From Rotaria socialis (taxonomy: Eukaryota), in contig CAJNYD010000038.1 of assembly GCA_905331295.1 (NCBI GenBank), forward strand, positions 1-43,747: DNA of 43,747 nt. The letters run 5' to 3'. A program made the position numbers and the translations under genes. Shown here one piece after another: positions 9,582 through 43,024 of this stretch (position 1 is the first letter of the stretch; each line of letters starts with the position of its first letter). Under the pieces are notes generated by a model. That model did no database searches and was not told the DNA's origin. It worked only from the letters and a program-made list of their open reading frames with translations.

Positions 9582-9955
9582 TCATCAAGGTAGCTTCTAA
9601 AATACTATATCGTGATTTGTTGGACTTATATCCATTCTTCTGTCTCTCTCTCTCTCTGACACGGTAATGATTATTATCATATATAAAAATGAGTCATTAG
9701 CTAAAATAATACAAGAAAAAGTTGAGCATCTATCTATTGACTACAAAATTTGAATATTTATATGAGCAAGTAGTAAATATTTCAACAGTATATAGTAGTA
9801 TTGAATCATATTTTCAGCGATGAGTAATCGATTCTTATAAACAACATAAAATATAATGTTAATTTTTTTCTAAACAAGCATAGTGATTTTAATATTAGTT
9901 TTACATATTTTTCTCATTTTAGAGACTGACATATATTTTATTCTCATTACTTAAC

Positions 9956-12091
9956 ATGGTGTCAACAATAACACATAGCCTCAAACGTAAGACAGTCGAC
10001 GCGAAAAATGAATCACTCTATACAGCAATACGTTTTGCAAATGGTATTATGAAAACGATGGATAACGAAAGGTTTCGTTCTTTGGTGACTTCTAAACTTG
10101 ATCACAAGAACAAACCGATAGATGTAGCTGTCCAACGTAATAAATGTGGTGAAACTATTAGAAAATGTTCTAATACGAAAACTACAACACAAGGCGAATT
10201 ACAAGATCGTGAAAAAGAACTTGATGCTTTGGCAAAATTATGTCGTTTACTGATCTATGTTGTTGTGATAAAACCAAGTTTACGAGGAAACATTATACAT
10301 GTGTTGAATTACGGTGCATTGGCAGTACCATATTCTGAATGTATTTGTATTCTTCGTGAAGAAGAAGAGGATCATTATGATCCTTTGTATGCAGTCAACA
10401 AACAAAATCTCAATGAAGAGATCACGCTTTTTGAACGTGATGAAAGAAACATTTCTGAACTTCTTACGATATTTATTCGAGAAGAACTCCATTGTAAGAA
10501 ATAAGACATATATTTATACAAGAGAATTTTTCTTATTTCTTTCTAGATAACGACGATATACATTCAGATTGCAATAATAAATCGTTTATAAATGAACCAA
10601 CAGCTGGATTAAATGGTAAATAAATAATCTTATTAGCTTTATTAAAATATTTGATTTTAGTCTCAAATGATGCTGATAATATATTTGATATGTTTACTTC
10701 CGGTGCCAATGAAAAATATTCGAACAAACGAAAAGATCTAGGTAGATAATTATTAATCCGTGCATTTTTCTTTAAACTCAAGTGTTTTAATAGATTATGG
10801 CAGTCTTGAATTTGCTGAAACTACCGAAAAACTTTCAGTAGTGATTAATAAACGTCAAAAATGTTCTACGCCAGGTGAATTATTGGGTATGTTGATAACT
10901 TTGATTTTCACGTAATCAATCTTTTCCTTTTTTTTCTATTAGATATGCCCATTCGAGAATCGATAGCTGTTGAGCAAAGTGCAGAAATGGACATTGACAC
11001 TAGTGAATCAAGTGCGTATGCAAAATATGAAAAAGTTTTTTTGGTTAATTAGAATAATGTTAGATTCATTAATAGGTAGTCAATCATCAGAAAATGCTCC
11101 GCAGATTTCGAATAATGAAGAAGAAAACGAAAAAATGCGATTTAAAATTGAACCTCCTTGTACATTTCGTGGTCGTCTATTAAGCGAATTCGAGCCAACG
11201 AAAGTAACAAAACGTAACGGAGAACCATCAGAACCAGGACCACCACGTTATTTTGCCGATGAACAAAATAATAACTATCTCAATCTATTGGTTTGCTCTT
11301 ATAATTAAATATACAATAATTATATAAGCTATGTTTTTTCTTGTCTATAGATTCCAAATTCATATCTTCCAGGTGATATATCTCGATATCGTCTTGAAAT
11401 CTGCTTGGCTACACGAGAAATCGATGGCTATAGATATATTCATCCATATTTCAAATTTCGAGTACAACCAAGGGATCGCAAATCTCTACTGCTCAATCCG
11501 ATATATATCTATTTCGATGATGAACTTAAATTAGAAAAAATATCGGAAGCATTACGACAATTACCGTAATTAAAAACAAAATTCACGAGAACTAATAAAT
11601 ATATAATATGATTATATGTGTAGACTTCAATTCATGATCGTTATGCATACAAATAAGGAGTTGATGGAAAGTGTACAACCGTTAACGGTCTTTTCATCAC
11701 CAACGGATAATAATCGTACGATAAAAAAAGAAAATTTTTTTTTTTTAAATATAAATTACTTTTATAGATAGAAGAATGATAAGAACAAAATTTGATGACC
11801 AGAAAACATTCAAAGACGCTTATCATCTTAATGAAATATTTTTTGCAGTAACATTGTGGAGCAAAAGCCCTGGCGAAAATGAATTCCATCGACATGCTGA
11901 TAAACAATATATTAGCCAGATGTCAGAACAAGATAGACATGTAAAAGCAAATTTTTTATTTTAATAATTTATTTTCGCTTTTTGTTTCTAGGCAAAAGTT
12001 CCGAAGAAAGATACAAAAGAACATATTGCAATTTATGAATATTTGTGCAGTTTTATTTATGAACAGATTGGAAATTAATAGTAAATTTTAG
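9956..12091 (+). CDS. Multi-exon protein: inactive YOD1/OTU1-like OTU domain, linker, divergent Rel-homology-like domain (paralogue A)
   Basis: Ten coding exons join in frame through GT..AG introns (e.g. 10494-10546, 10616-10660, 10742-10793, 11291-11350, 11941-11991); stop TAG at 12089-12091. OTU motifs: NESLYTAI (Cys box with C>S), ELDALAKLCRLLIYVV, HYDPL. C-terminal motifs: FKIEPPCTFRGRLLSE, RLEICLATRE..YRYIHPY, LQFMIVMHTNKEL, YHLNEIFFAVTLW, QYISQMS. The gene itself is well supported; the RHD call is tentative. Confidence 0.8.
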
Positions 12092-12837
12092 TTTTTATGT
12101 TCAATTATACTAATCTAAAAATTTTCTTGTTCATTCAACGTACGAAAATCTCTTTGTTATTTTTTATAATAAAAAAAAATTGGTTGCTTTAGCCACTGCC
12201 ATATTTATCTTGAGCTCGAGTCATCGATATACGCGACAGCGCTAACAGTCTTACTAATAGATCGGTGATGTACATCAAAACACGATAGAGTTTGTGAAGG
12301 AGTCCAGTGTTTAACCATTTCCGACATCGTTTTTTTTCGATTTAGTAACACTTCACTCTTCATATGCCTGTGAGAGTTTGTCTCCTTTTTCTATGCTAAT
12401 ATCATGACAAAACTATTAAAAATTTTATCATAGAAAAAAGTATTATTTCTTGAAAAATAATTGCACATTTGTCGATTAATCACCAGAAGTAACGCGATTT
12501 ACACACATTGGTTCGTATTAAATGTACGAAACAAGAAGTATTTTCTATTTTCCGCACTAAATATGCTGATTTTACTGTCTTAGTGCGACATCTATCAGTG
12601 TCCGCTTATTATTGGCCAGCGATTTGATTATTATAGAATAAAGTGAGGAGCCATCATTCGTTCGTTTCTAAACTATGTTAAACAGAATAAACTAAAAGCA
12701 TACAGAAAAGTATTTTTTGCTCAACCTATGAGAAAAAAATCATCAGCTACTTACATATTAATTTGTATATTATTTTTTAGATCTTTTTTTCCTAACATGT
12801 AGTATTTAGAAAATTCTACTAAAGATTACAACGTCCA

Positions 12838-15800
12838 ATGATGATGAACCAAGCAGCACCACCTTCACAACAACAAACAAGTATTTAAGAAAAAGATACA
12901 CCCAAATCATTGAATTTAATTCTTAAATATATTTTCAGTGTACATGTCAAATTCAAATGTAACAGAGAATCAAATGATGAATGCGTCATCGAATTCATCA
13001 CCATTAAATATGACAATGAATTCGGCTCAATCAAATTTATTCAATCATCAAATAAGTGCTTATAAGTATCTTGTTCGAAATCAAAATGTACCCGATCAAC
13101 ATTTGATGGCTATTAAGCGCAGTCAACAACAACCTACACAGCCACAACAGCAACAATTTTATCCACCCAATGCTGTTATTTCTAAACAATCGTCTAGTCC
13201 AACAGTCGACGCTCGTTATACTCCATCTATTAATACAAGTAAACCACCAGTAAATGGTTTAAATCCACGTTATCCAACTCCGCCAACTTACTATTCACCT
13301 GTTCAAGTTAATGGAAACTCGACAACAAATATAAATTTTCAACCAGGAACTGTTCAAGCGTCAACAAATATTATCAATCAAACACCATCGATAACTGAGA
13401 ATGTCTTAACCAATGTTTCCAGTGTACCGCTTCCTCAAACAAATACAACAACGACGACAACTGCAACATCAACAACAGCTCGTATGAATAACAATCTTCG
13501 TTTAACACCCGTACTAAAGCCAACTGGTGTTGATATACAAGAAGTTCTTGTCGAACGTGATCTTCGTATTCAACATAATATTGTTATACGTATAGGCGAA
13601 CTCGACAAACTCTTACCAACTTTATTGCACGATGATCTACGCATGAGAGCTATGATTGAACTCAAAGCGCTGAAATTATTAAATTTCCAAAGACAAGTTC
13701 GTATTTAATTTTACTCAATCATCCAGCGTGAAAAATACTAGCATTTTCAGACTCCGAAAGAAAACGATCGTCTAAGATTATCTTTTCAGGGCATCCTATA
13801 TAATGTGGGCAAAACCTCACATTAAAATATAGCTATTCCATTTGACTACGAGGATTTAAGAATGTTTTCCGGCTTCTGTCACTGTTTAATATAACTTCTA
13901 TTGTTTGTTTTTCGTTTAATTTAGCTTCGTACTGAAGTAGTTACATGTATGCGGTTGGATTCAAGTCTTGAAACGGGCAATAATCCTCGTTTATATAAAC
14001 GCTCGAAACAATTTGGTATGCGTGAAGCACGTGCCACGGAAAAATTAGAAAAACAACAAAAAGCTGAAATCGATCGCAAACGTCGTCAAAAACATCAAGA
14101 ATATCTAACAGCTGTATTAACAGTAGCACGTGAATTTAAAGAATTTCATAAAGCGGTTCAATTGAAAACAAATAAATTAGCACGTTCAATATTATCATGG
14201 CATCAAAATACCGAACGTGAACAAAAGAAAGAACAAGAAAAACGTGAACGTGAACGTATGCGTCGTTTAATGAACGAAGACGAAGATGGTTATAGAAAGT
14301 TAATCGACGAAAAGAAAGATAAACGTTTAGCTTATTTATTATCACAAACCGATGCATATATCATAAGTTTAGTTAATCTTGTTAAAGAACATCAAAACGA
14401 TTTGAAGAAGAAAAAAAGTGAAAAAAGACAATATTTCATCGAGAATAACAATCCTCAAATAAAAGACGAGGGCGGTTATTTACGTGCTCGAGTTAAAAAT
14501 ACGGTTACAGGTGAAGTTAAATATGGAAGTGACGCACCATTATCAGCTGAATTAGATTCATGGTTAGAAAAAAATCCCGAATGGCTACCGGTGTCAGGTG
14601 ATGGAAGTGATGTCGAAGAAGAAGATATCCCACAATTAGCGGAACCAATAAGTTCAATACCTGCGCCAACACCCGATGAACAAGAAAAAGGCGTCGTAGA
14701 AGATGAAAACATTGTTAAAGAAGTTTTAACTAAAGCTAAACAAGCAACAGAAGATGATGAATATCATACATCATCATTGGATTCATATTATGCGGTTGCA
14801 CATCGTGTTAGAGAACGTGTTGTTAAACAATCAGGATTACTGGTTGGTGGTAGTCTTAAACAATATCAAATACAAGGTTTAGAATGGCTTGTTTCATTGT
14901 ATAACAATAATCTTAATGGTATTCTTGCCGATGAAATGGGTCTCGGAAAGGTAAGTTTGTTGTTGTTGATCTAGCCTGAAGAATCTCATCATTCCTTGAT
15001 GAAAAAATTTAGTTTCTGAGGAGAATTTTCTTACTAAAGGTAGGCACCTATAAATCGCTGTAAAACTGATAAGAACTTTTTCTTTAATGTCACTAAACAC
15101 TGAAATTTTCAAATATTTAGACAATTCAAACGATTGCACTCATAACATATTTAATGGAAGTTAAAAAAGTCAATGGACCCTATTTAATCATTGTGCCATT
15201 ATCGTAAGTTGAAGAGTCATTTTTTTTTCTTTATACATCGTTCCCGTTCTGTTTTATAGCACATTAGCTAATTGGGTTAATGAATTCAGTAAATGGTCAC
15301 CAGCTGTTTCAATAATCATCTTTAAAGGAAATCCACAAGTGCGTAAATCTCTTGGACAAACATTACGAAGCGGTAAATTTAATGTGTTGTTAACCACATA
15401 CGAATACATTATCAAAGATAAAGCACTGCTAGCCAAAATCAAATGGCGTTATATGATAATCGAGTTAGTAATTTTTTATTTTTGAGAACTTCTCTTTTTA
15501 ATTTCTTTCTCAGTGAGGGCCATCGAATGAAAAATCATCATTGTAAATTAACACAAATACTCAATACACATTATATCGCTCCACATCGTTTGTTGTTAAC
15601 TGGTACACCGTTACAAAATAAGTTACCTGAACTGTGGGCATTATTGAATTTTCTTTTACCGTCAATCTTTAAATCTTGTACAACATTCGAACAATGGTTT
15701 AATGCACCATTTGCAACAACATGCGAAAAAGTTGAACTCAATCCGGAAGAAACATTACTTATTATCAGACGTTTACATAAAGTTCTACGACCATTTCTTT

Positions 15801-18633
15801 TACGTCGACTTAAAAAGGAAGTTGAATCTCAATTACCAGACAAAGTAAAATAGTTGTTTGCTTCTGTTATAAGCAAAAATTCGACATTCTATAATTTAGA
15901 TTGAATATGTGATCAAATGTGATATGTCTGCATTGCAAAGAGTTATGTATAATCAGATGCAATCAAGTGGAATGCTTCTTACGGAAGATAAAGTAAGCAC
16001 GAACGATATATACGTTGATGAACTAGGGGATCGGAAGTGAAGATCCGTGGCTTGCAGTGAGATGATATAAATTTGTATTTTCCTGTTCTTTTAGAATGGC
16101 AAACCCAGTAATCCAAAAGCCTTGATGAATACTATCATGCAATTACGTAAAATATGTAACCATCCATTTATGTTTAATGAAATCGAAGAAAAAATCAGCC
16201 AGCATTTTAACTATACGAATGGTGTTTGTCTGGGGTATGAAGATGAATTTAGATTTCTTCAAATTTTGAAATTGAATATTTTTAGCGCTGATCTTTATCG
16301 TGCATCGGGAAAATTTGAAGTACTGGATCGAATATTACCGAAATTAAAAGTATCAAATCATCGTGTTTTACTGTTTTGTCAGATGACTTCTTTGATGACT
16401 ATCATGGAAGATTATTTTGCTTATAAAAGTAAATATTTTTTGAATTTTCTGTTCATTATTAACTTGTTTTTTGTCATAGATTTTACTTATTTACGTCTTG
16501 ATGGTCAAACCAAATCTGAAGAACGTGGCGATCTATTAGCTAAATTTAGTGAAGCTAATTCTGATATATTCATATTCTTATTATCAACACGCGCTGGTGG
16601 TTTAGGTTTAAATTTACAAAAAGCCGATACAGTCGTTATATTCGATTCTGATTGGAATCCGCATCAAGTAAAATCTTATTCTTTGAGTCAATTAAATATT
16701 TAATGTCTTTATTTCGTTAGGATTTACAAGCCCAAGATCGTGCACATCGTATCGGTCAAGTGAACGAAGTTCGTGTTCTACGTTTGATGACTGTAAACAG
16801 TGTTGAAGAAAAAATCTTAGCTGCAGCTCGTTACAAATTAAATGTTGATGAAAAAGTTATTCAAGCTGGAATGTTTAATAATAAATCAACAGGAAATGAA
16901 CGGAAACAATTTCTACAACAAATTCTTTTACAAGAAACTGAAGAAGACAATGAAGAAGAAGACGAAGTTCCTGACGATGAAATTATCAATCAAATGATTG
17001 CAAGAAGCGAAGATGAATACAATCTATTTAATGTAAGAAGAAGCAAGAAAACAATTTTGTTTAAATTTTTAAAATTTTTTTGCTATAGAGAATGGATCGA
17101 GAACGTAGACATGCAGAAGCTCGTGTGACCAATAGAAAAGCACGTCTTTTTGAAATATCAGAATTACCAGCGTGGATAACTAAAGATCCAAAAGAATTAG
17201 AAAATGCTCTTCTCGATCAAGAAACATTGGACTTATTCGGACGTGGCTCCCGACAACGAAAAGAAGTCGATTATTCAGATTCGTTAACTGAAAAAGAATG
17301 GATTAAGGTAAGAAAATTGAATAGTTTTGCAGAGACTAGAAAAAAAAATGCAGTGAGCAGCTAATGCTTAGAATTACAAAACTTCAGTCGTCGAATGATT
17401 CAAGTTTTCTTTTATTGAAATTTTCAGGCCATCGAAGATGGAACATTGAATTCAACTGAAGATAAAAAACGTCGACGTCGACGACGTTTTAATGTTGACT
17501 TGGATGAAGATGAAGAAGGCCAACTGGATGATACCGATATGCGACAAGTTGATAATGATTTTGAAAGTATGGACGCAAAATCAAGTAAACGTAGTGGTAA
17601 ACGTAAATTAAAAGATACAAGTCGAAATTTTACGAATGAACCGATATCATCGAAATTATTTAAACAATTACAAACTTTATTAGATTTTGTTGTTAAATAT
17701 CGTGACAAGTATGAATTAACAGGTTTTTGTTTTCTTTAAGTGATGCTTTTCTTTTCTGCAGTGATGATAATCGAATTTTAAGTAAACCGTTTATGCGGTT
17801 ACCAACACCCAAAGAATTACCGGAATATTATGATATGATTAAAAATCCAGTGGATTTTAATAAAATAAAAGTATGAATTTTAAATACAAAAGAATCTTTG
17901 GTTTTTGTTTTTGTAAATAAAAAATTTTGTGTTCTTTAGAAAAAACTTAATGACAATCGTTATCGAAGCATAGATGAACTTGAAGTTGATGTTATGCTTT
18001 TATGTAAAAATGCTCAAGAATTTAATATCGAAAGTTCAAATGTAATATTCTCGAAATAACAAAAAAAGAACTCATCGAAAATAATTCAATATTTGTTTTT
18101 GTTTAGATCTATGAAGATTCAATTATTCTTCAATCAGTATTTACCAATGCACGTGAACGTCTTGAAAAAGGCGAAATTCCAATTAGTTCAAATTCAGAAG
18201 AAGAATCTGATGATGATGGTAAAGAATAAAATTAAAAAAACGAACATTATTTCTTACTCTAATAATAATACATTTATGTTTAGAACCCCTAAAAAAACGA
18301 GTTAAAAAAGATGGTAGTACGAAAAAGGTAAGAAAAAAAATAATCACTGAGTATTTCGATAATGAATTTCGTTTTCTTTCTCACTATTTAGAAATCTCAA
18401 AGTCAAGCGCGCACACCTGGTAGTGTTAGTAGTAATTCAAATAGTCGACGTAAAACTCGTGTAATGAGCGATGATGAAGATATAACCATGGATGAAACAA
18501 ATCAAGTATGTCTTAGTTTACCTTTTGTTCGTTCATCGAACTACTTATGTTTATCATTTAGTCTTCGTTTGGCTGTTTGGATGATGACGATGATGATGAA
18601 GAAACTCGTGGCTCTGGTTCGCGTCAAAAATAA
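12838..18633 (+). CDS. SMARCA4: SWI/SNF ATPase brahma / SMARCA2-SMARCA4 orthologue (multi-exon)
   Basis: QLQ ([16 protein letters not shown]), HSA, BRK-like segment, SNF2 ATPase motifs ([68 protein letters not shown]), SnAC ([21 protein letters not shown]) and a bromodomain (about 17760-18170). ATG at 12838; final exon stop TAA at 18631-18633. Confidence 0.97.
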
Positions 18634-18742
18634 AACAAAATTGTCTATTTGTTTTTTTCTCTTTTTGGGTCTATTCCTGTTCGAAAAATTTCTGTTACTG
18701 TATGCGTGTTTTAGCTATACTGTAAAATTTGTGTGCGTTGTG

Positions 18743-18768
18743 CGTGTGTGTGTGTGTGTGTGTGTGTG
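18743..18768. repeat. (GT)n microsatellite in the probable 3' UTR of the brahma gene
   Basis: Direct reading of the dinucleotide run. Confidence 0.9.
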
Positions 18769-19765: not shown

Positions 19766-22059
19766 ATGACTTTTCGGACTAGCTTCATAATTCGTAAGTA
19801 CAATTATTCTTTCATCTAAACTATTGATTCGAGATTTTTCTTTAAACTATAGTATCTCTTATTTTCCATATCATCAATGGAATCTTTGGTTTATCTCTTA
19901 ATGAAACAAGTAGTACAAGTGCATTGCCATCAGTACAAAATTCAACAGTAGTCGTTAAAAAACTTGCAAAATGTAAGTTTATGAATGAATGAATGATTTC
20001 TATTCATTTTTATATTAATCATAGATACACTTCAAGAAAAAACGTCAAGTATTCAATATCTATCTGAAGCTGGCTCACGTTGTGCTGGTAAATTATTTTA
20101 CACTTGATAATGGCTTTTTCCATGACACTAATCTTTCGAAATATTTAGAAGATGGTTTCTATCCAGATAAAGATGACTGCCGAAAATTTCATGTCTGCTA
20201 TAGTGGTACACAATCGGTTCGTTGGTGCAAAGAAGGAATGTTATGGGATGAAATTAAAATTGGTTGTGGTATGCAGAACGTAACGGTATGCAGTGGCGGT
20301 CGAAAAACATGGACTCGCGATGAAGGTAAAGCATTGTTCGATAGTTGATTTATGAAGAAAATAACGAGAAAATTTAGAAACTACAACAACAACAATTGCA
20401 TCGAAAACATTGAAAGGAAATTATACGTGTCGATCAGGTGCAAATGGATTATTTGCTGATCCGAGTTCCTGTTCGATTTATCATTGGTGTGTTCTTGGTG
20501 TACTTCATTCAACGCATTTTTGCAATCCTGGTTTACACTTTTCAGCTAGTGCCAGTGGATGTGTTTGGCCAAAAGATGCTGAATGTAAGAATTTATTTAT
20601 CGATGTTGACGGGGAACTTGGATTTTCCACTGTTTTAGGCGAAGGACAAATTGCACCACCTTATTCGTCAACTGAATGTGCATTAGGCAATTCAGGTTAT
20701 TATCCTGATCCTTATGATTGTTCGGTATTTCATTATTGTGATGGTAAGATATAAATGTTTTCTTCTTTTTTATATAAGTAAATAATTTTCTTACATATAG
20801 GTGTTCGAGTTCTTAGTGAATCATTACTTTGTTCAGCTGGTCGAGTTTGGAGTTCACGTAAAGTTTATCTAAATTAACAATTACTGAAGAAAATAGTAAT
20901 TTTTATTTTTTAGGATTAGAAAATTGTGCATGGCCTCATGAAGTACCTGAATGTATGTTTCGATTTTGCTGTTTGATAAGTTCCTATTGAATATATTTTG
21001 TAGGCGTCAATTCATGTCCTGCAAACTATTCAAGTCAAATGCGTTTTGCCGATCCAGCAGTATGTTCTCAATATATTCAATGTGTTGATGGTCATTTAGA
21101 ACCACGCATGTGTCCACAAAATTTTCTTTTTGATCGTATTACAAAAACATGTAAGCCATACGATCAAGCTGAATGTCATGGTAGTAAACCAGATATATTT
21201 TTAACAACAACAACAACAACAACAACAGTTAATCCTTGTGAGTTTTATTGATTGGAACCGTTAGAAAGAAAGAACAAAAAAAAAACATTTCCATCAATTT
21301 TTCTAGATCCATCACAGGATTCGTATGACTATAATCCAACGGTTTCAGAAGATGTCATTAAAAAACAACGCATCTTTCAATTTAGTTGTATTGGTAAATA
21401 GAGTCGAATTTTTTTGTTTTTCAGTAAATTGAATTTTAATCTAGTTGACGGTTATTATGGTGATGTTTATGATTGTCGCATTTATCACGTATGCGTTGAT
21501 GGCCGTGACCATCGATCACTTTGTGCTCCAGGTCTCGCTTGGGAATCGCTATTACGTTTATGTATGCCAGTTCAGCTTGTTAATTGTCAAAGTTCGAAAT
21601 CAATTGAAGGATCACCAGGTAAATGGAAACTTCTTTTTTCTTCGTTTCATATATTAAATCTTCTTTTAATAGATTCATCCAAGAAAAAATGGCTTCAACT
21701 CTATACTCGTTCCGTTCTAAGAACAACGACAACATCGACAACAACAACAACACCAAAACTACCGTTTGCTTTACCCTCCATTTTCACTTGTGCTGGTCGT
21801 TCTAACGGTTATTACGCAGATCCAGTTTATTGCCATAAATTTCATTACTGTGGAACGGGTATACTACATATCTTGTTTTGTTTTTAGTTTTTATCTATAC
21901 ACATTTATTTTCATCATTTGTCTGGCCTTATTTTTTTCAGGCTGGCATAGTGTGATGGAATGTGATAAAGGCTTAGGATATTCGGCTCGAGAACATGATT
22001 GTATACCAATTGAACTTGTTAATTGTGGTGCCAAGAAGTTTCTCAAAAAACAAAATTAG
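19766..22059 (+). CDS. Secreted peritrophin/obstructor-like protein with six CBM14 (chitin-binding type 2) domains
   Basis: Signal peptide MTFRTSFIILSLIFHIINGIFG after splicing. Six 6-Cys units (C..G.YPD..DC..FH.C...C..GL.W....C....C) separated by poly-Thr mucin-like linkers. Stop TAG at 22057-22059. Confidence 0.92.
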
Positions 22060-24487: not shown

Positions 24488-26508
24488 GAACGTGTCATTT
24501 TCGTCAAATGCCAATGCCAATAAGGTGTGAAATTAAAAATTTCATAAGCATATATCTCAAATTGATTATTGAAATAGATTGAAACAGTACTTGAATCTTT
24601 GCGTCTTGACGATGATTCTTTACGACAAATTATGCAATTACTTGAGCAAGAAATGGATGCTGGTCTCTCTCCAGCTACACATGCCAAGGCTGATGTAAAA
24701 ATGTTTCCAACTTATGTTCGAAATATAGCCAACGGATCAGAAACTGGTCAAGTACTTGCATTGGATTTAGGTGGCACTAATTTTCGTGTTCTACTTGTTG
24801 ATTTATTACCTGAAGGAAAAGTTGAATTAACATCGAAAATATTCGTTATACCACAATCAATTATGCTTGGCGAAGGAGTGAATGTAAATGAGAAAAAAAA
24901 AGAAAAATTGTTTTTAATTTTCGAGAAAATTTTCATTCGATTATTTTAGTTATTTCGTCATCTTGCTGATTGTCTTGTTGATTTTATGAAACAAGAAAAA
25001 CTGATTCAACCCGGTGTTCATTATCCATTAGGCTTTACCTTTTCATTTCCTTGCTATCAAGAAGGTCTTGCATCAGCACGATTAACATCATGGACAAAAG
25101 GCTTTACATGCGCAGGTGTTGTCAAGGAGGATGTTGTTAAAATGCTACAAAAAGCTATCGATGAAAAGGTATTTTAGTTTGAAAACAAAAAGGAACGATT
25201 TTCATTTCTTATTTCGTTCTCAAACTCTAGAATATTAATGTACAATGTGTCGCACTTGTTAATGATACTGTTGGCACATTAATGGCATGTGCCCATAAAA
25301 AGCCTCACACATCGATTGGTCTTATATTAGGTACAGGTACAAATGCATGCTATATGGAAACTCTAGATCGAATTGGTACATGGAATGGCGACTATGAGGA
25401 GCCAAAACAAGTGATTATTAATATGGAATGGGGTGCATTTGGTAACAATAAGCGTTTAAATCACGTTCGAACAAGATACGACGAAGAAGTTGATTTGTCA
25501 TCCGTCAATCCAGGGAAACAAATGTATGAAGAAAAGAGTTTTCTGATGACAAAATCAAATCCGATCGTTTTCTTTTTCTAGTTTTGAAAAGATGATCAGC
25601 GGAATGTATATGGGTGAAATCGTTCGTTTAATCATACTTGATTTAATGCAACAGGATTTATTATTTATTGGTCAATGTGATAATTACGGAGATTACAAAA
25701 CACCGTTGTTTACACGCGGCGGTTTTTATACGAAATTTGTTAGCACTGTTGAAACCGACGAAGGTATTGCATTTTCAAACACGAGACGCGTTCTTCAAGA
25801 TATTGGAATTAGAAATCCAACGTTTGATGATTGTGCAATTGTACAACATATCTGCAAAAATGTTTCCAAACGAGCAGCGCGATTAGCCGGTGCAGGTAAC
25901 ATATATTATTATATTCATGATACTTTTAGAATTAAGCAATTATTTTCGTATCCTTCTTTTTGTTTTTGTGTTTATTCAGGTGTTGCTGTGCTCATTAATA
26001 GAATCAATAAGCCACATATAACTGTTGGCGTTGACGGTTCACTTTATCGTTATCACCCAAGATTTGAAAGAAACATGCAGAAATGTATAAAAAACTTAGT
26101 CAATAAAAACATAAAAGTCTGTAGTAAAATTCTATTGAACAAGAACAAAACACTAAAGCCCAAGTATCATGTTAATACATTTTAGTTTGAAATGTCATTG
26201 TCCAATGACGGTTCGGGTGTTGGTGCTGCATTGACTGTAGCAGCCGAAGTATTGTCATGTCAAAACGATAAAAATCATCTGACAATCAAAAACCGAAACA
26301 ACGTCGACGATCACACGTGTAAGATGACGAATAGAAAAGAGAATTTGAAAAACTCGCGGACAAACCAATAAATTGCTTTATTTGGAATTCAAGATCTATG
26401 CTGCCTTCTTGCTTAACCTTTGTTGAAATCTATTAAGTTCACATGCCTATCTGTATTTTGTTTCATTTTGTATATTTAGCTCAAAATCGAATTAACCTTA
26501 TCCAATGA
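22551..26508 (+). CDS. HK: Hexokinase (single-domain, about 50 kDa type) with an N-terminal hydrophobic segment
   Basis: Motifs VKMFPTYV, LALDLGGTNFRV, LGFTFSFPC, WTKGF, VNDTVGTL, ILGTGTNACYME, INMEWGAFG, FEKMISGMYMGE, VGVDGSLY, DGSGVGAAL. Exon 1 is 22551-22727, followed by a 1.85-kb intron. The 3' end is either 26508 (splice 26319-26479) or 26371 (unspliced). Confidence 0.95.
24453..24487. repeat. (CT)n microsatellite in hexokinase intron 1
   Basis: Direct reading of the dinucleotide run. Confidence 0.9.
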
Positions 26509-28574
26509 TCGCAAAAGCAAAAGGAGTACCGTTAGTTGCAATAGCATAAAGCTATTTTATACCAACACAAAAAACAGCAATCACACATTTACATCAATGT
26601 CCTACTTGGATGATCATAATGATAAAGTGAATCTTTTATACACAATTTCAAAAAAAACAACGACATTTATCTTAGTAGAGTAGGCATGCATATTGCGTAA
26701 GAGTCACTAATATTTTAGTTAGAATGTTATTTTAATCATGCTGTTTATACTTTAATGTTTTCTTTCTTTTTTTTTGTATAAAAAACCGATTTTCTATATG
26801 CTCAATATTTATAGTGTTTTGGAAAGAACATGTGCGACTTTTTTCCTGTTGTCTGTTTTGTAGAAGAACTTCTTTTCTTGTTTTTTTTTCTAATTTAAAT
26901 TAGTCGATTGTTAATTTTTTTTAAATTTATGCTGTAAATGTAGATCATTCGTTGAAATCTTGTGTTTTGCTATTCAATGGGTATGTTAATTCAATAAGGA
27001 AGATTGGATCCTGAAATATTTAAATGTTTTCTTTATATTAACAATATTCTTGACAGCGAGAGATTTTCATTCTGACATTCGAACTCTCTGTTAGTAGTGA
27101 TTGTATGCAATAGCACAAAGAGCATGACATACCGCATGTCACTTGCGAACTCGTGCATTTTAGACGCTCAAGAGATTGATCACATTCACATTAAGTAAAT
27201 AATCTCGCTATCGAACTAATTATTTATGGTAGGAAAAGTGAGCTGCGCTTATTGTGCGTACGCATCGACCTATTCGAATTTCGCGTCGTTTACAATTAGA
27301 GCAGCATCTTTGTTTTTTTCGTCATGGTTGAATAGAGCCCGATCAGCTTAATAATAAATTTTTGTTTTCTCGTATGTCATGTACTGGCAAAGTAATGTTG
27401 CAAACATTCAAATCGAACATTTTCTTCTCGAGTTTCCGTACTACAACACACTGTTGTGTTTTATGTTTCAGTTTGCCATCATCTTGGATTTCACCACCAC
27501 GTTATACTTAATTTTAATTCGCTAGCAATGACTCATTTTGTGAGTATCCTACGCGTTGACAAGAAGGATATTTTTGTAGTTTGAAGAAAAGAGAAATATT
27601 TAAATGTTTTCTTTTCATTTCCATTGTAAACATAAATATTGGTAAAACTATTTGATACATAGAAACGAGTCACGTTACTGTAACGATGAATCATCTGCAG
27701 TTTATGACTGACTTTTTGATTGAGTTTTACTTCTTTTAGTTTATCTATCGAAAGTACATATCGTATAAGCATATTCAAGTAAACCTTCTCTTCAGAACTC
27801 TACATTCCATGCAACGGAACAATTTGTTAAAATCTTCTTGTTTACTACGAAAGCGACTTTTATCGTTTCTGATACTTGAATCCTGTAAGACGTTTTCTTT
27901 TAATTTCCGTATAAATAAATCGATAGATAGACAGAATCATCTTAACTATTTTCACATAAAACTACGAGCATGATCAAGTAGGTTTCATTTGACCAACTAG
28001 TACGAATGCATAATTTTATGCTGTTAGTCATCAATAGTCATTATAATGTGTCATCATTGCCTATGATACCATATTTTGACTCATTCTGAGTTATATTTCG
28101 AAGAATGACTATTGCAGTGGTTTGTTTCTTCTTCTTCTTCTTCTTCTACTCCTTCTTCGTGTGCGATTATTTCTTGTATGATGTGGCATTTATTGAAGGA
28201 AAGGTTTCTTTTTCCCTTATTCTCTACGTCGACAACAACACAGCCCACGCCATCCACATTTCTTATTAAAGACGAGAATTTCTTTAAAGAGAAACAAGCG
28301 AAGAGAAAAAAACAACGAGTATTTTTTCTCATTGTGACATTCACAGCAAGTTACTGTTAACTCAAAATTATGTTCGATGCCGACAAAAATACACACCGTC
28401 TGTGTAAACTGCGGGAAAACAATGAGAATAAAAGCATGTAGATTTATGGAAATTGGTTTTTATTGATTTCTTTCTTTCTATTAGAATATACGAAAATAGA
28501 TGCTAAGATTTTGATATTCAGTATATGTTCAATTTTGTTTTAGATTTATTTCAATAAACTAATTTCTTTTATTC

Positions 28575-30458
28575 ATGGCTGAGCAATGCCTATCTAATGC
28601 TACTGAGACTCCGTCCATTTCCCATCCGATGAAACAGCCAACTTCGATAGAAGCTCGTCATGTAAATACTCTCATTCGTCGTTCTCTATCCAATAAACTA
28701 AACATTCTTTCTCTAACTCCATCAACTACAATGACGACTGCTTCGACACCATCGACAGGTTCACTGGCGATGACTTGTATTGAATTAGGTTGTGTCGTTC
28801 GATCGATTCATCGTCCTCAATCTATAACGAATGCAACGGAAACGATCACGACGACTCCTTCTACTGACGAGGATCACGTATTTATGCATGATGTTAAACG
28901 ACTCGAAGTATTGACAGATGCCAACAACTGTGCCTTAACTTTTGATAGTGACAACGACGACAATGATGACGATGATGATGATGATTCTTTTGACGATGAA
29001 GAAGAAGCTATTGTAGCTGACTCTCTTAATTCTTCATTGTCTTCAACTATGTTGAATTACGTTCCTATGCCATGTCCCATTTGCCTCGAGCAAGCATCAT
29101 TACAAACAGCTCCATGTTGTACATTTTATTGTTGTTCTTCTTGTTGGCGTTCTCACATTTCAGCTTCATTAAATGATGGTCGCATTAAAATGTTATGTCC
29201 ATCGAATGAATGCAACAAATATTTGACGAGAGATTCTATTGTAAATTTTCTTCGTTATGATCCAATATTATATGAACGTTATCATAAATTATATGATAAT
29301 GCAAATCAAAATCCTCGTGCTAAAACATGTAAGTTAAATATTTGATGTTCTAGTCAAATAAATTCCTTTCTATGATTGATTTCATTAGGTCCACGTTGTT
29401 CACATCTTTATTCACTCGATACAATAACACCTGTTAAACTAAAAAAACATAAGAAAATTCCCAAACAAGTTCAATGTTCCGAATGTTCGCTTGTGTGGTG
29501 TTTTCGTTGTTCGGCACCATGGCATGATAGTTTAACATGTAAACAATTTATGAAAGGCGATAAACTTTTATTAAAATGGATTAAACAAAAATCTGAAGAA
29601 CAACGAAATGCAAGAAAATGTCCAAAATGTTCTTCATTTATACAACGCGCTGGAGGTAAAAAATTGAATATTTTCATTTTTATATAGAACATCTTTTTGT
29701 TTTGTAAATTAGGTTGTCCTCATATGACATGTTCATCGTGTTCTTGTGAATTCTGTTATTTATGTGGTCGACGTTATGTTAAAATTCCAATTATTGGCCA
29801 ACATAGTAATAAGCTCAGGTTCGTTGATCTTTGTCTTCTGAAATTAAACTAAAGAAATTTAATTTTAACTAGTATGTTTGGATGTCCATATAATCTTCAT
29901 CCGGACAGACCCTGGCTACGTCGAACCATTCGTGGTATGGTTGCTACGGGTGTTATTGTTGCATCACCTATTATTGTTGCTGGTGCTGTAACTGCAGCTG
30001 CTGTTGTTTTACCACCAGTTGGCATTTATAAACTTGTTAAACGTATACGTGCTCGACGTTCGACAGATATTTTAATGCGATCTTTTCGTGACGAACAAAA
30101 TTTGTTAAATGGTATTCATATTCAGCAATTGCAAAATCCTCTACTGGAATTCGATTACAACGATGAACACATTAGTGCTGCTGCAAGATTAGCTATCTTA
30201 CGAGAACATTATGAAATAAGATCTTTTGCACAAAGAAACGAAGAAACTATCAATGAAACATTTCCATTAGCAATATTTGCCGATATGGATGTTGAAAATT
30301 TAACTTCCGATGATGATAAAATCCCACCAGGCTTTCAAACGTGCCCAACGACACCCTTGCTTGACAAACGAAAAGTTCGTAGTCGAAGTTTAAGCAATTC
30401 AGAACCTATAATTCATCCAAATATTAATCGTTATCATTCAGTCTCGTTAGAACATTAA
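28575..30458 (+). CDS. RNF217: RBR-type E3 ubiquitin ligase, RNF217-like (RING1-IBR-RING2-TM)
   Basis: RING1 CPIC..CC..CCSSCW..CPSNEC; IBR CPRC..QCSECSLVWCFRCSAPWH..C; RING2 CPKC..IQRAGGCPHMTCSSC..EFCYLCG. These are followed by GQHSNKLSMFGCPY..PDRPWLRRTIRG and a hydrophobic TM, as in RNF217. Confidence 0.9.
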
Positions 30459-31134: not shown

Positions 31135-33193
31135 TTATTCATCATTAACATTCTCGAAAATAGAATCACAGAGTTGTTGATAGATTTTGACTTTTTTGTT
31201 CAAAGTATTCTTTGGAACTTTAGTCTAAAGTAGAAAAAATTAAAAATTAAAAAATCATAATATTTTTTTCTTACATTTTTATCTTCGATTGAAATTTCAC
31301 TAATATATTGCTTTTCACTATGCCGACGAAATTCGTCATCATCACCCGTTCTGCTCCATGGTGTTACTGCAAAGCGAATTTCATGAAGATGGTAAACTGC
31401 TTTAAATTCTTCATGTTGTTTCTTAGCGAATATTGTTGTTATTTGTGTTGCATCTTAAAAAAAGAAAAAATTTATATTAACTACTGAACATTTATTAACT
31501 TACGATTATTATCTTGTGGTGATGAAAAAACTCGCAAGGGTTGTTCACTTTTCATTAATTCATTATTCTTTTTCATAACGACGACAAATTGAAGTCTAAA
31601 AATGTGAGAAAAAATGTATATTTATTAGATAATATGAATATATATTAATTACTTTAATAGTCGGAATAGTTCGGAATAGTGTTCTAATTTGAGTTGACTA
31701 TTAAGATAGATGTATATCGGATTGACAAGTAGGCTTGCGCGATCTGTTGGATGTATTCGGAAGTTGAAGTACGGATTAATATAAGTATAGTTATTGATTT
31801 CTGGTGTAACTATACAAATTTCAAGACGATGCCGACGAATATCACCTGAGAAATGGGAATTCGGCAACTAGAGAAGAAGAAAAACAAAAGTGTAGCAATT
31901 ATCTAGTTTAACTATTGGCATGTAATAATAACAAACCAATAAGTTCAAATAATTATTGTTGTTTCTATCAGGAAAGTAACGTGGTGGTCCAAGTTTTAAT
32001 GGTTCTCCATTGCGGTCCTCCGTTCTTTTTGGTTCGAATTCGCTCAATGTACGACCACGAAATTCTAAAGCAAGTTCGATCTCAAATCGCATATTTTCCT
32101 GTTCAACTTCAACACTTGATAATTTTTGGCGACCATTAGATGAATCTTAAAAGGAGCTTAATTAAGCAATGACAACTTTTCATGCATTCATACTTTTGAC
32201 GTGTGAAACTTCTTCAGTAGATTCCGGTGCATCTAGAAGAAGAATGATTAATAGGAAAAGGAAAATACTCAATTTACTCGATGTCGACATTTCAAAAGTA
32301 TCGCATGTAGAAATTTTTTTTCGTTTATTCGAATCTATAAAAGATATTGTAGCAAATAACACGATTCGAAATATAATTGCAACGTACTATTAACTTCATT
32401 AGACACTAATGTTGACGGGCGTTTAATAGTAAATCCTTTTTTTGGCTCATCGTATGAAGTTGTACTGGCAGCAAAAGTAGCCAAATGTTCTATTTTACTT
32501 TCAGATGAAACTAAAATTAAAAAAAACAATAAATCAAACAAGTAACAATTGAGATGATTTTTTTACCCAGTGACTCATCGTCAGGTTGATGATCAACATC
32601 GCCTAGAAATATTACAAAACGAGTATTTTCTTTACGTTCAATATGTATTTCTTTTTTTTACAAGCAAGCGTTTCTTGAACAAATTTAGTAGCTAGTTGAT
32701 AAATGTGTTGATCATCAGGTTTAAAAATTGTCATCTTTTCCATTGGGTTTTCTTTATTAATTGCATATAGGGAATCATAACGTTCATCATCTTCATCATA
32801 ATAAAGATAAATACATTCTTTGAAGGGTACTACAGGTGCATCATAAAGCGAAACATGTATATCATCTTCTCCGAATAAATTGTTTTTCATTGAAATAACA
32901 TGAATTAAGAATTGACATACCATAGCCAACGCTTTAATTTGTATTTCATCTTCTGGCAATTTTCCTGTCATGATCTGATTACAATAAGTATCAATAGATT
33001 TACAATTTGTGCCCCTTTGTATGACTAAGCTCTTTAGATTCTCATTTTTACGAATATAGTCAGCCACGAGCGAACGTAATTTTTTGTTATCCATGCTCTC
33101 CAGAGTTCCATTTGCAAAACGTATTGACGTATACAAAGATGCATCATCATTACTTTTGCTACGGTGGAATGTGTATATTTCTGCGGATTTCAT
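31135..33193 (-). CDS. Multi-exon protein: inactive YOD1/OTU1-like OTU domain, linker, divergent Rel-homology-like domain (paralogue B)
   Basis: ATG at 33193. OTU-like motifs: DDASLYTSI, KSIDTYCNQI, QIKALAMVCQFLIHVI, ERYDSL, TIFKPDDQHIYQLATKFVQE. C-terminal exons: FRGRTLSEFEP, RLEICIVTPE..YINPY, LQFVVVMKKNNEL, YHLHEIRFAVT, QYISEIS. Intron positions in the C-terminal domain match paralogue A. Stop at 31137-31135. Confidence 0.8.
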
Positions 33194-40817: not shown

Positions 40818-43024
40818 TCATTTCAACAGATTCTCACAGTTAAGATTTGAATATTCAATAATGGCATCAACAACGATAGCATAAGCAGTGGCAGCAATCG
40901 TTGGAAGAGGCAGAGCCGGCAAAGAATCAGAATCAGTATAGTGAAGCAGGGAATCAGTGCATATATCAGCAAGTTGTACGCTGACTATGCAACCGAATGC
41001 TATGCATGTTCTTATTGTAATCGAAGAATTGGTGGGTATAACCAATAGTAGTAAAATATTGAAAATAAGAAAGTCACCCCATCCAAGAAACGAATTACAC
41101 TTGTCTTCTTTTTCTACATCATCATTCAGTTCATTGATATCATATACGCAATAAACACCAAGTGGAGTCGTTGGATAATCAAATGACAGAGCGTCCACCA
41201 CTGCTTCATTTATTCGGTCATTACCACCACATTTTGGATGCAAACATATGATACTATTTTAAAAAAACAAATCTTATTTGTACGAATAAGAAGAGAAGAA
41301 CCAATTCATTCAGAAGATATCAAAATAGAGAGAAATATCTAATTTGATGACAGTGTTTTTCACTCTGCCAGTCCTACGTAATTAAAGTGTGTTATGGCTT
41401 GTATCTAAACACGTGTCGTAAGACAAAACAAATGCGCTATGAGTATTATTCATATATATTTGTTCTCTTTCTTTCTCTACAAATATTTTGTTTACTATAT
41501 ATAACTATCTCTTTTCTTTCGTTCTGTCAGGTATTTTTCTTGATGTGCTCTCTTGATTTTTTTCTTCACACTGTCTTTTCTTCCTGATGGAATAACTCAC
41601 GTATTTGTCCAACGATATTATGCTACCTATTGGAATATTCCACTCTTCATTTAACATTTGATATAAACACCTCTTGTTTTTGTACAAATGTGTTTCATTT
41701 AACTTCATAAATAAACACCTATACGCATAAATATATGCACGCTCTAAGAAAGTTAATAATGTTCTTTTTTTTTCAACAAAATCTATTAAATCAAACGACA
41801 AAGTTGATTGCTACAGAATGAAAGAACCAAAGAATGGTTTGCACTAGTCAACATATCAGATCGTTCGATGGTTATATCCTAGAGCCATTCAAGATCTCAT
41901 ATTATATACCACTAGTTTCCCAATAGATGACATATAGTCAAGTATTTTATTTATACAAGCTCTCAAAAAGTTGATGAGAAAGGTTTTAAACCATTATTTT
42001 TTCTTCTAATACTTAGGTGATAGTAAAAAGTTAGAGAAGCACAATTAGCTATTGAACAAAATAAATCAGATTATCGATGGATCGACTTAATTGAGTTTAC
42101 TTATATATAAATATTTTTTCTAGATTGAAGATTGAAAAATTCTCAATCCGGAAGAAGTCTCGATTGTGTTGATCTAAGAAAGAGAATATAGTACGATAAG
42201 AAATAAACATTTATATAGATTATACAAATGTCTTAAATCTGTATTTGGATGTGTATTTTTAGATCTTAAGCGATCGATTATTTCTCAAATGATTACTAAC
42301 AGTAATGTGTACAATGTTATTGTCAAAAAAATGTTTGACTATCACAGAAATAAAAATCACTTATACAGACTTACATATCCATAGCAGATACTAGCCAAAA
42401 AAAAGCAAAATCGATATATGTGGGTACAAGTCGAAATACAATATCATACGTCGTAAATGCTAAATATGCCATAGATAAACAAGTTACTTGTTGATGAAGA
42501 GTAAAAGAAATAATCGGTAGATCCTGATAAAGCCATTTATAAATAAGAGCAGCGAATTGCCAAACAAGGAAATAGACGGTAAATGTGTCAACTTCATACC
42601 ACATGTAAATAGTATGACAGTAACGAGCCAATAGCCAAGTAGCTGTAATCATCAATGACAAAAGAGTAATGATCCTCGGTATTTTTCGAACAGAACTATA
42701 CAACAAGTAGGGTAAGCAAACTTTAAGTATCACCATGACGAGTGGATACGAATAATATGTACCATCGTACGCAATATAAGAAAGACACGGGTGATCTACA
42801 CAAAGTATAACAAGATATGAATAATCTATAATTCATGAATGCATACACAACCAATAACACTGAACCCAGCAGCGTACAGCCAGTGCATGATCACGCATTG
42901 CATCTGCAACCATGTACTGAAACAAAGAGCCACTTGCTCTTGTGTCTTTCAGAGCACAGTGGAGTATGAATGTCATGAACATACTCAAAGTACTTCCCAT
43001 ATATTTGTATATAGAATCTTTCAT
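40818..43024 (-). CDS. Divergent presenilin-like GxGD aspartyl intramembrane protease (A22 family), 344 aa, 3 coding exons
   Basis: Exons 43024-42847, 42795-42375 and 41253-40818 sum to 1035 nt, in frame. Motifs: VDTFTVYFLVWQFA (cf. presenilin VDYITVALLIWNFG), LHQQ, LVSAMDIIICLHPK (cf. ISVYDLVAVLCPK), FLGWGDFLIF and LPALPL. Confidence 0.85.

Follow-up and report, generated by a model that had tools for sequence, protein, structure and literature searches.

A probable pseudo-OTU domain fused to a predicted, IPT-less Rel homology domain in a gene family of bdelloid rotifers

Our analysis of a 43,747-nt stretch of Rotaria socialis DNA (contig CAJNYD010000038.1; 'the window') shows that a single gene, here called gene A, encodes a chain in which a predicted YOD1/OTU1-like deubiquitinase fold with serine in place of the catalytic cysteine is followed by an acidic linker and a predicted Rel homology N-terminal (DNA-binding) domain, behind which the protein ends. 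Judging from sequence and predicted structure, we assign a probability of about one half to the reading that gene A is a nuclear, IPT-less DNA-binding regulator that uses its inactive OTU domain as an interaction module, with those relatives that have intact catalytic residues acting as DNA-tethered deubiquitinases. Family gene models with such intact residues lay beyond what a sequence-only reading of the window could see, and they change the picture that this reading had drawn.

The coding sequence of gene A extends on the forward strand from the ATG at 9956 to the TAA at 12076-12078 and consists of ten exons (9956-10493, 10547-10615, 10661-10741, 10794-10886, 10943-11011, 11076-11290, 11351-11565, 11624-11715, 11768-11940 and 11992-12078), which together form an open frame of 543 codons. 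All nine introns are of the GT..AG type and 45-64 nt long, in an AT-rich locus of eukaryotic character. A single spliced frame had been assembled by hand in the sequence-only reading and placed at 9956..12091; the frame and its start are confirmed, but the end lies 13 nt beyond the stop codon. One transcript contig of 1789 nt (run X1, from one study) spans 9921-12178, joins all ten exons and shows zero mismatches to the window within the aligned pieces shown; GT..AG is recorded for eight of its joints, and the ninth, from 11715 to 11768, is seen as the adjacent record positions 1429/1430. The run type is only guessed as RNA, but because the introns are removed precisely, the contig derives from mRNA. 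The idea that the OTU and C-terminal exons belong to separate genes was rejected, since this one contig joins them, and an annotation artefact was rejected on the strength of the transcript and of the eight species labels found in the family. A second run, X2, covers 188 nt of exon 1 and nothing more. A database protein labelled Rotaria socialis, P0001 (547 aa), is identical to the gene A protein except for a different splice choice near intron 5, which adds four residues; its AlphaFold model, built on an alignment of 59 rows, is used below.

At its 5′ side the contig carries 22 loose letters, joined at the splice acceptor (9921; AG at 9921-9922) behind which the 5′ untranslated region (9923..9955, forward strand) begins; they match nothing in the window when up to three mismatches are allowed. 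We take them to be the bdelloid spliced leader, which is the likely explanation. Since bdelloids trans-splice a leader of 23 nt (PMC1925144), the contig likely reaches the true 5′ end; at its 3′ side it is unspliced to 12178.

The N-terminal domain (residues 1-179) lies entirely in exon 1 (9956..10493, forward strand) and is of the YOD1/OTU1 type, as had been proposed. With a profile of nine sequences, the only PDB matches are three sequences of human OTUD2/YOD1 (E values from 2e-4 to 3e-4), and the predicted fold (residues 6-182 of the P0001 model) superimposes on OTUD2/YOD1 (4BOS) with Z 15.8 and rmsd 3.5 over 142 aligned residues. Further structural matches are yeast Otu1 (Z 13.5) and viral OTUs (Z 8.9-9.4); as the latter score so far below YOD1, a viral origin of the domain was rejected. 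Exon 1 alone gives no Pfam family match, and PDB sequence searches with exon 1 or P0001 returned nothing relevant. In the profile alignment to 4BOQ, Ser20 (codon TCA, 10013..10015, forward strand) falls on YOD1 Cys160, in agreement with the first reading of the site, and His140 (10373..10375, forward strand) falls on His267, i.e. the catalytic histidine is kept in gene A, with arginine at this position in a second copy in the window, paralogue B; YOD1 numbering follows the 4BOQ construct, amino acids 132-314 (PMC3705208).

Changes also extend beyond the catalytic cysteine, with Q-D-R at the site of the Trp-Gly-Gly motif (P-E-D in paralogue B), lysine for the aspartate of the Cys loop and arginine for the aromatic residue before the His loop. 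The Trp-Gly-Gly motif has a role in binding the ubiquitin tail, and its loss is the telling change, because the aromatic column and those of the S2 residues vary also among intact family members. The S2 residues of OTUD2, Ile292 and Val295 (PMC3705208), correspond to asparagine and glutamate in gene A. Both the glutamate following the Trp-Gly-Gly site and the catalytic histidine are kept in gene A and gone in paralogue B. By these sequence features, the OTU domain of gene A is likely an inactive enzyme.

An important question is whether such a domain could still bind ubiquitin or polyubiquitin. The sequence-only reading had proposed an OTU–Rel fusion factor or decoy that reads ubiquitin chains; the architecture stands, but the ubiquitin-reading and decoy mechanism has become weaker with the loss of Trp-Gly-Gly and aspartate and with the absence of an IPT domain. 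A ubiquitin reader, which we consider doubtful, would be consistent with the retained His140 and glutamate, with the OTU fold kept in the predicted model and with the finding that inactive OTUD2 C160A binds K11 diubiquitin (PMC3705208), whereas the altered Trp-Gly-Gly, aspartate, aromatic and S2 positions argue against it (the aromatic and S2 columns with the variability just mentioned), as do a pLDDT below 50 for residues 53-79 within the domain and the report that the human pseudo-OTU FAM105A does not bind ubiquitin (PMC7862380). Because aspartate, Trp-Gly-Gly and the aromatic residue are lost and residues 53-79 are poorly modelled, the reading of ubiquitin chains is not our default expectation.

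The OTU domain is followed by an acidic (21% D/E), Ser/Thr-rich (19% S/T) linker of about 120 residues (10547..11134, forward strand; exons 2-5 and the start of exon 6), which is predicted to be disordered: residues 188-299 of P0001 have a pLDDT below 50, and the pTM of 0.53 for the whole model indicates no fixed arrangement of OTU and Rel domains. The linker contains the basic patch KRK (10726-10734, forward strand) and the NLS-like motif KRQK (10850..10861, forward strand), and that of paralogue B contains KRKK, all of which had been noticed from the sequence. Across the family, K[KR]x[KR] is present in 14 of 17 linkers compared with 1.8 expected from shuffles, a comparison in which the rows are related and therefore non-independent.

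The Rel homology domain comprises about residues 302-517 (11135..11940, forward strand; exons 6-9) and is recognized by its predicted fold. At about 14% identity to RelA, it escapes detection by sequence: Pfam RHD (PF00554) matches none of 54 Rel-domain rows at E values up to 10, nor single exons of gene A, nor P0001, and the profile of the Rel-domain family found no RHD among PDB sequences. The AF2 model of the domain has a pLDDT of 92.8, and in an ESM Atlas search RHD_DNA_bind clusters rank first (0.90, 183/256 features). Foldseek gave 38 matches at E <=0.001, with NF-κB or NFAT complexes throughout the matches listed to rank 35 and with modest TM-scores of 0.32-0.47 in the listed rows at this threshold. 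In a search of 48,161 chains done without Foldseek, the top six were RelA, a RelA/c-Rel chimera, RelA, p52, p50 and TonEBP (Z 10.3-11.6, rmsd 3.2-3.9, 155-168 residues aligned), the next being Velvet at Z 6.6; within the whole-protein P0001 model, the domain reaches Z 12.5. By the ranges that the structural aligner reports, residues 306-520 of P0001 are collinear with RelA 19-192, i.e. with the whole DNA-binding subdomain. The absence of a Rel/NFAT fold had been named beforehand as the outcome that would speak against a Rel-type C-terminal domain; the predicted model does have the Rel fold.

In NF-κB/Rel proteins, this subdomain is followed by a dimerization (IPT, RHD-DD) subdomain (PMC11432056). 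The gene A protein ends about 25 residues past the Rel domain and therefore has no IPT or ankyrin region, exactly as the sequence-only reading had it: the stop is in the transcript, the coding part of exon 10 (11992..12078, forward strand) provides a short C-terminal helix and the stop codon with no space for an IPT domain, and for ankyrin repeats or a transactivation domain no sequence remains behind the domain and no Pfam match exists. The same holds for all 15 proteins that combine an OTU match with a near-complete Rel domain, in which at most 23 residues follow the profile match. A full NF-κB or NFAT orthologue was rejected for lack of the IPT domain, and the proposal of a heterodimerizing dominant-negative decoy has against it that gene A is devoid of the very domain through which NF-κB dimerizes. 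A homodimer prediction for the Rel domain gave a score of 0.00, with the alignment not used, and is neutral on the question of dimers.

In gene A, the equivalent of the recognition loop is R-G-R-L-L-S-E (residues 315-321; 11168..11188, forward strand), followed by F, as compared with the NF-κB consensus RFRYXCEG (PMC2751831), i.e. Arg1, Arg3 and Glu7 are kept and positions 2, 4, 6 and 8 are changed. The loop is covered by 54 of 93 Rel-domain segments; of these 54, 51 have Arg1, all have Arg3, 51 have Asp/Glu7, 13 have Tyr4 (leucine in gene A), 28 have Ser6 and nine have Thr6. Conservation concentrates on those loop positions that contact bases in NF-κB, which supports DNA binding by the family, probably with another specificity. 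Position 6 is serine in both A and B and not the threonine of NFAT, and serine at this position is compatible with DNA binding (PMC2751831). That the Rel-like domain has given up DNA for a role as a protein- or RNA-binding scaffold seems quite unlikely to us: it would go along with the missing IPT domain, the loss of Tyr4 and the low identity to NF-κB, but within the loop conservation is highest at the two arginines and the acid, and the NLS-like motif is retained.

How, then, does gene A compare with known systems? It shares with the NF-κB/Rel proteins (RelA, c-Rel, p50, p52; PF00554) the predicted RHD-N fold over its whole length (Z 10.4-11.6) and the Arg, Arg and Glu of the loop, but differs by the missing IPT domain and ankyrin repeats, by the C-terminal location of the Rel domain with an NLS-like motif before it and an OTU domain attached, by the replaced Tyr and Cys of the loop and by being undetected by Pfam. 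NFAT proteins have a long Ser/Thr-rich disordered region and an NLS before the Rel domain, and gene A resembles NFAT1-4 and NFAT5/TonEBP in this layout as well as in the RHD-N fold (TonEBP Z 10.3, NFAT1 Z up to 10.9, slightly lower than the Rel proteins), whereas the missing IPT domain, serine instead of threonine at loop position 6 and the attached OTU set it apart. Gene A would act in the manner of an RHD transcription factor, but stands outside both NF-κB/Rel and NFAT by the IPT criterion. Fungal Velvet proteins (VosA, VeA), with an RHD-like DNA-binding fold, are the next-best structural family (Z 5.9-6.6), but score far below NF-κB, have no OTU domain and are fungal.

On the OTU side, YOD1/OTUD2/OTU1 (PF02338) is the best match of the N-terminal domain by both sequence profile and structure. 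YOD1 itself has a UBL and a zinc finger; gene A has neither, and differs also by its Cys-to-Ser exchange, the lost Trp-Gly-Gly and the fusion to a Rel domain, and its relatives by carrying two or three tandem OTUs. Pseudo-OTUs such as Drosophila Otu and CG3251 or human FAM105A/OTULINL likewise have an OTU fold without the catalytic cysteine, and repeated Cys-to-Ser losses after duplication have been described for Drosophila OTUs (PMC4654579), but these proteins belong to other OTU subfamilies and are partnered with Tudor or membrane motifs rather than with a DNA-binding domain.

Paralogue B (31135..33193, reverse strand) is a predicted gene of ten exons and 523 aa, with an open frame and GT..AG introns, that has the same order of pseudo-OTU (with Ser and Arg in place of Cys and His), linker and RHD-N; its exon 1 does match Pfam OTU (E 1.3e-7). 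The database model of this gene, P0012 (449 aa), begins with an internal methionine and is without the first part of the OTU domain; upstream of this start, the frame is open from an ATG at 33193 (33193-32972, reverse strand). The Rel domains of A and B are 60% identical (127/213), in line with the good conservation that had been noted for the C-terminal domain, and the OTU domains 41% (71/173).

The lower conservation of the OTU could mean that it is a functionless, decaying remnant and that gene A encodes a plain RHD-N transcription factor. We regard this as unlikely, although the OTU of gene A is without a Pfam match, a helix region in it is poorly modelled and RHD-only relatives exist (P0087, P0109, P0130), since its frame is intact and expressed, the domain is 77% identical to one labelled R. 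magnacalcarata, and dead single-OTU forms are retained in both Rotaria and Adineta.

The wider family was found with the Rel domain. A sequence search with it gave ten proteins, all labelled Rotaria, and a profile run against 1.84 billion representatives yielded 191 matches at E <=0.001; among the matches listed (150 of 191), many are single-exon fragments. Of 20 matches that were looked up, 14 carry species names, all Rotaria or Adineta, and six are environmental records; the eight species labels are R. socialis, R. magnacalcarata, R. sordida, R. sp. Silwood1, R. sp. Silwood2, A. steineri, A. ricciae and A. vaga. Three of seven further homologues match Pfam OTU above the curated cut-off. With the whole protein, the ESM Atlas returned one cluster of 50 members, mostly from rotifers and annotated as OTU only, which may be the protein's own. 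A homologue search restricted to proteins of 1673-4775 aa found none, and a metagenome scan with the intact OTU protein P0019 found one contig of 1024 nt, too short for a linked Rel domain, and two weak matches.

According to the gene predictions, the family occurs in three architectures. In the first, a single OTU precedes the Rel domain, with serine at the cysteine site in ten of ten complete models that cover it. The second has two or three tandem OTUs and a Rel domain, one OTU keeping both Cys and His (P0013, P0016, P0017, P0020, P0022, P0026 and P0050). The third consists of Rel-only proteins that keep the loop tyrosine, i.e. P0087, P0109 and P0130, which have an acidic N-terminal region and no Pfam RHD match and may represent an unfused sister group; P0109 and P0130 end in a CPxC motif. 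P0024 and P0042, with one intact OTU and a Rel domain, may be cut pieces of multi-OTU genes; including these two, nine representatives are predicted to combine, in one chain, a Rel match with an OTU whose Cys and His are both intact.

Loss of the catalytic residues does not come alone. In a set of 65 OTU domains, from which near-identical cluster members, three near-duplicates, rows with gaps in catalytic columns and rows of fewer than 140 residues had been dropped, 32 keep Cys and His and 33 are non-intact (27 with Ser, three with Cys but without His), the histidine being kept in 20 of these 33. An aromatic-Gly/Ala motif at the Trp-Gly-Gly site is present in 26 of the 32 intact domains versus one of the 33 non-intact ones, and catalytic and tail-binding features have therefore been lost together. 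The OTU core is nevertheless conserved in the dead clade, with 14 columns at >=78% (18 rows). The frequent serine, together with the often retained histidine, might suggest a Ser-His OTU with residual ubiquitin esterase activity, and weak Ub-Ser esterase activity has been reported in a preprint for the pseudo-deubiquitinase OTULINL (FAM105A) (10.64898/2026.10.20.760496). For gene A we hold this to be very improbable, given that the Trp-Gly-Gly motif is gone and that paralogue B is without the histidine; moreover, the frequency of serine needs no function as its explanation, because serine is one base away from cysteine.

On a quick OTU tree, the backbone of which is weak with 28 of 61 inner branches open, the intact or non-intact state changes at least seven times. 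In a Rel-domain tree of 22 rows, rooted with the three RHD-only proteins on a long root branch, these proteins are split from all OTU-associated domains (branch 100/100), A is sister to B (98/97), and the multi-OTU forms unite in a single clade (100/100), which is nested among the dead single-OTU forms. With this nesting, dead forms can be derived from active ones only by assuming that the intact state was lost several times or that an intact OTU was acquired later. Both kinds of OTU are present in Adineta vaga: P0014 (I4U23_013917) is a dead-OTU–Rel gene and P0041 (I4U23_013918) an intact-OTU gene, whose consecutive locus tags suggest that a dead and an active OTU may be neighbours in the genome.

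For our preferred reading of gene A as an IPT-less DNA-binding regulator, one may envisage the following mechanism. The protein would be imported into the nucleus through the basic linker motif and would contact DNA, in the absence of an IPT dimer, by way of the two arginines conserved in the loop. Members with intact residues would deubiquitinate chromatin or transcription factors in the vicinity of their bound sites, whereas dead copies would sit on related sites without deubiquitinating and, with the dead OTU fold serving as a protein-interaction module, could tune or oppose the active ones. What is known of pseudo-OTUs gives a mixed picture: Drosophila OTUs with Cys-to-Ser exchanges (Otu, CG3251) are inactive even when the cysteine is restored (PMC4654579), and FAM105A has the reported lack of ubiquitin binding and the weak esterase activity mentioned above. 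A more far-reaching and distinctly tentative version is that bdelloids have assembled, from a hidden NF-κB-type domain and a YOD1-type OTU, a family of sequence-specific DNA-tethered deubiquitinases, in which active multi-OTU and dead single-OTU members would compete for related sites, and that this balance of enzyme and pseudoenzyme would set local ubiquitination instead of dimer choice and IκB control; the sharing of sites between the two kinds of member is our inference.

The OTU deubiquitinases that control NF-κB signalling exist as proteins of their own. In this expanded bdelloid family, with its eight species labels, the two domain types are united in one chain, with the Rel side invisible to Pfam. 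Both domains are known; what we have not found described is their fusion, the missing IPT domain and a family of active and dead members. Full-text literature searches, covering main texts and abstracts in openly accessible journals, gave no OTU–Rel fusion, and no paper for rotifer with Rel homology, for OTU with Rel homology domain and invertebrate, or for Adineta with NFAT. For Rotifera with RHD, RHD stood for rhodanese in the paper examined, and no relevant title was among the matches listed for bdelloid or rotifer NF-kappaB. The main text of an animal-wide NF-κB survey contains none of the words 'rotifer', 'Adineta', 'Rotaria' or 'OTU' (PMC11432056), and a term search of two bdelloid-related genome papers gave no mention of NF-κB or OTU (PMC11258130, PMC12804077). 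A hidden branch of IPT-less Rel-domain factors bears on how this domain binds DNA alone, as well as on Pfam-based surveys of how NF-κB is distributed. Should the intact members prove active, they would represent naturally occurring deubiquitinases directed to specific chromatin sites, with matched dead paralogues at hand.

Some observations at the margins of the family may also be of interest. The ESM Atlas holds two further Rel-like clusters of mostly rotifer proteins, one of 73 members with PF00554 in 44% and one of 107 members with no common family, and bdelloids may thus hold more Rel-domain families. P0080 (labelled Adineta steineri, 819 aa) has an intact OTU at about 203-363 and a Ulp1/SENP protease domain at 628-799; its middle region (about 395-570) shows Rel-like motifs by eye and no match to the Rel-domain profile, and P0080 is a possible OTU–Rel–SENP fusion. 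In the window itself, frames with a GxGD and a PAL-like motif, without a Pfam match at E 0.01 and presumably presenilin-like, lie at 40821-41258 and 42374-42832 (reverse strand). Between the two paralogues, all on the forward strand, are genes for a multi-CBM14 chitin-binding protein (20025-21884), a hexokinase (24578-26182) and an IBR-domain protein of the RBR E3 ligase type (28563-30455), and about 870 nt past the gene A stop begins a BRM/SMARCA2/4-type remodeller with QLQ, HSA, BRK, SNF2, Helicase_C and SnAC domains (12920-18766, forward strand).
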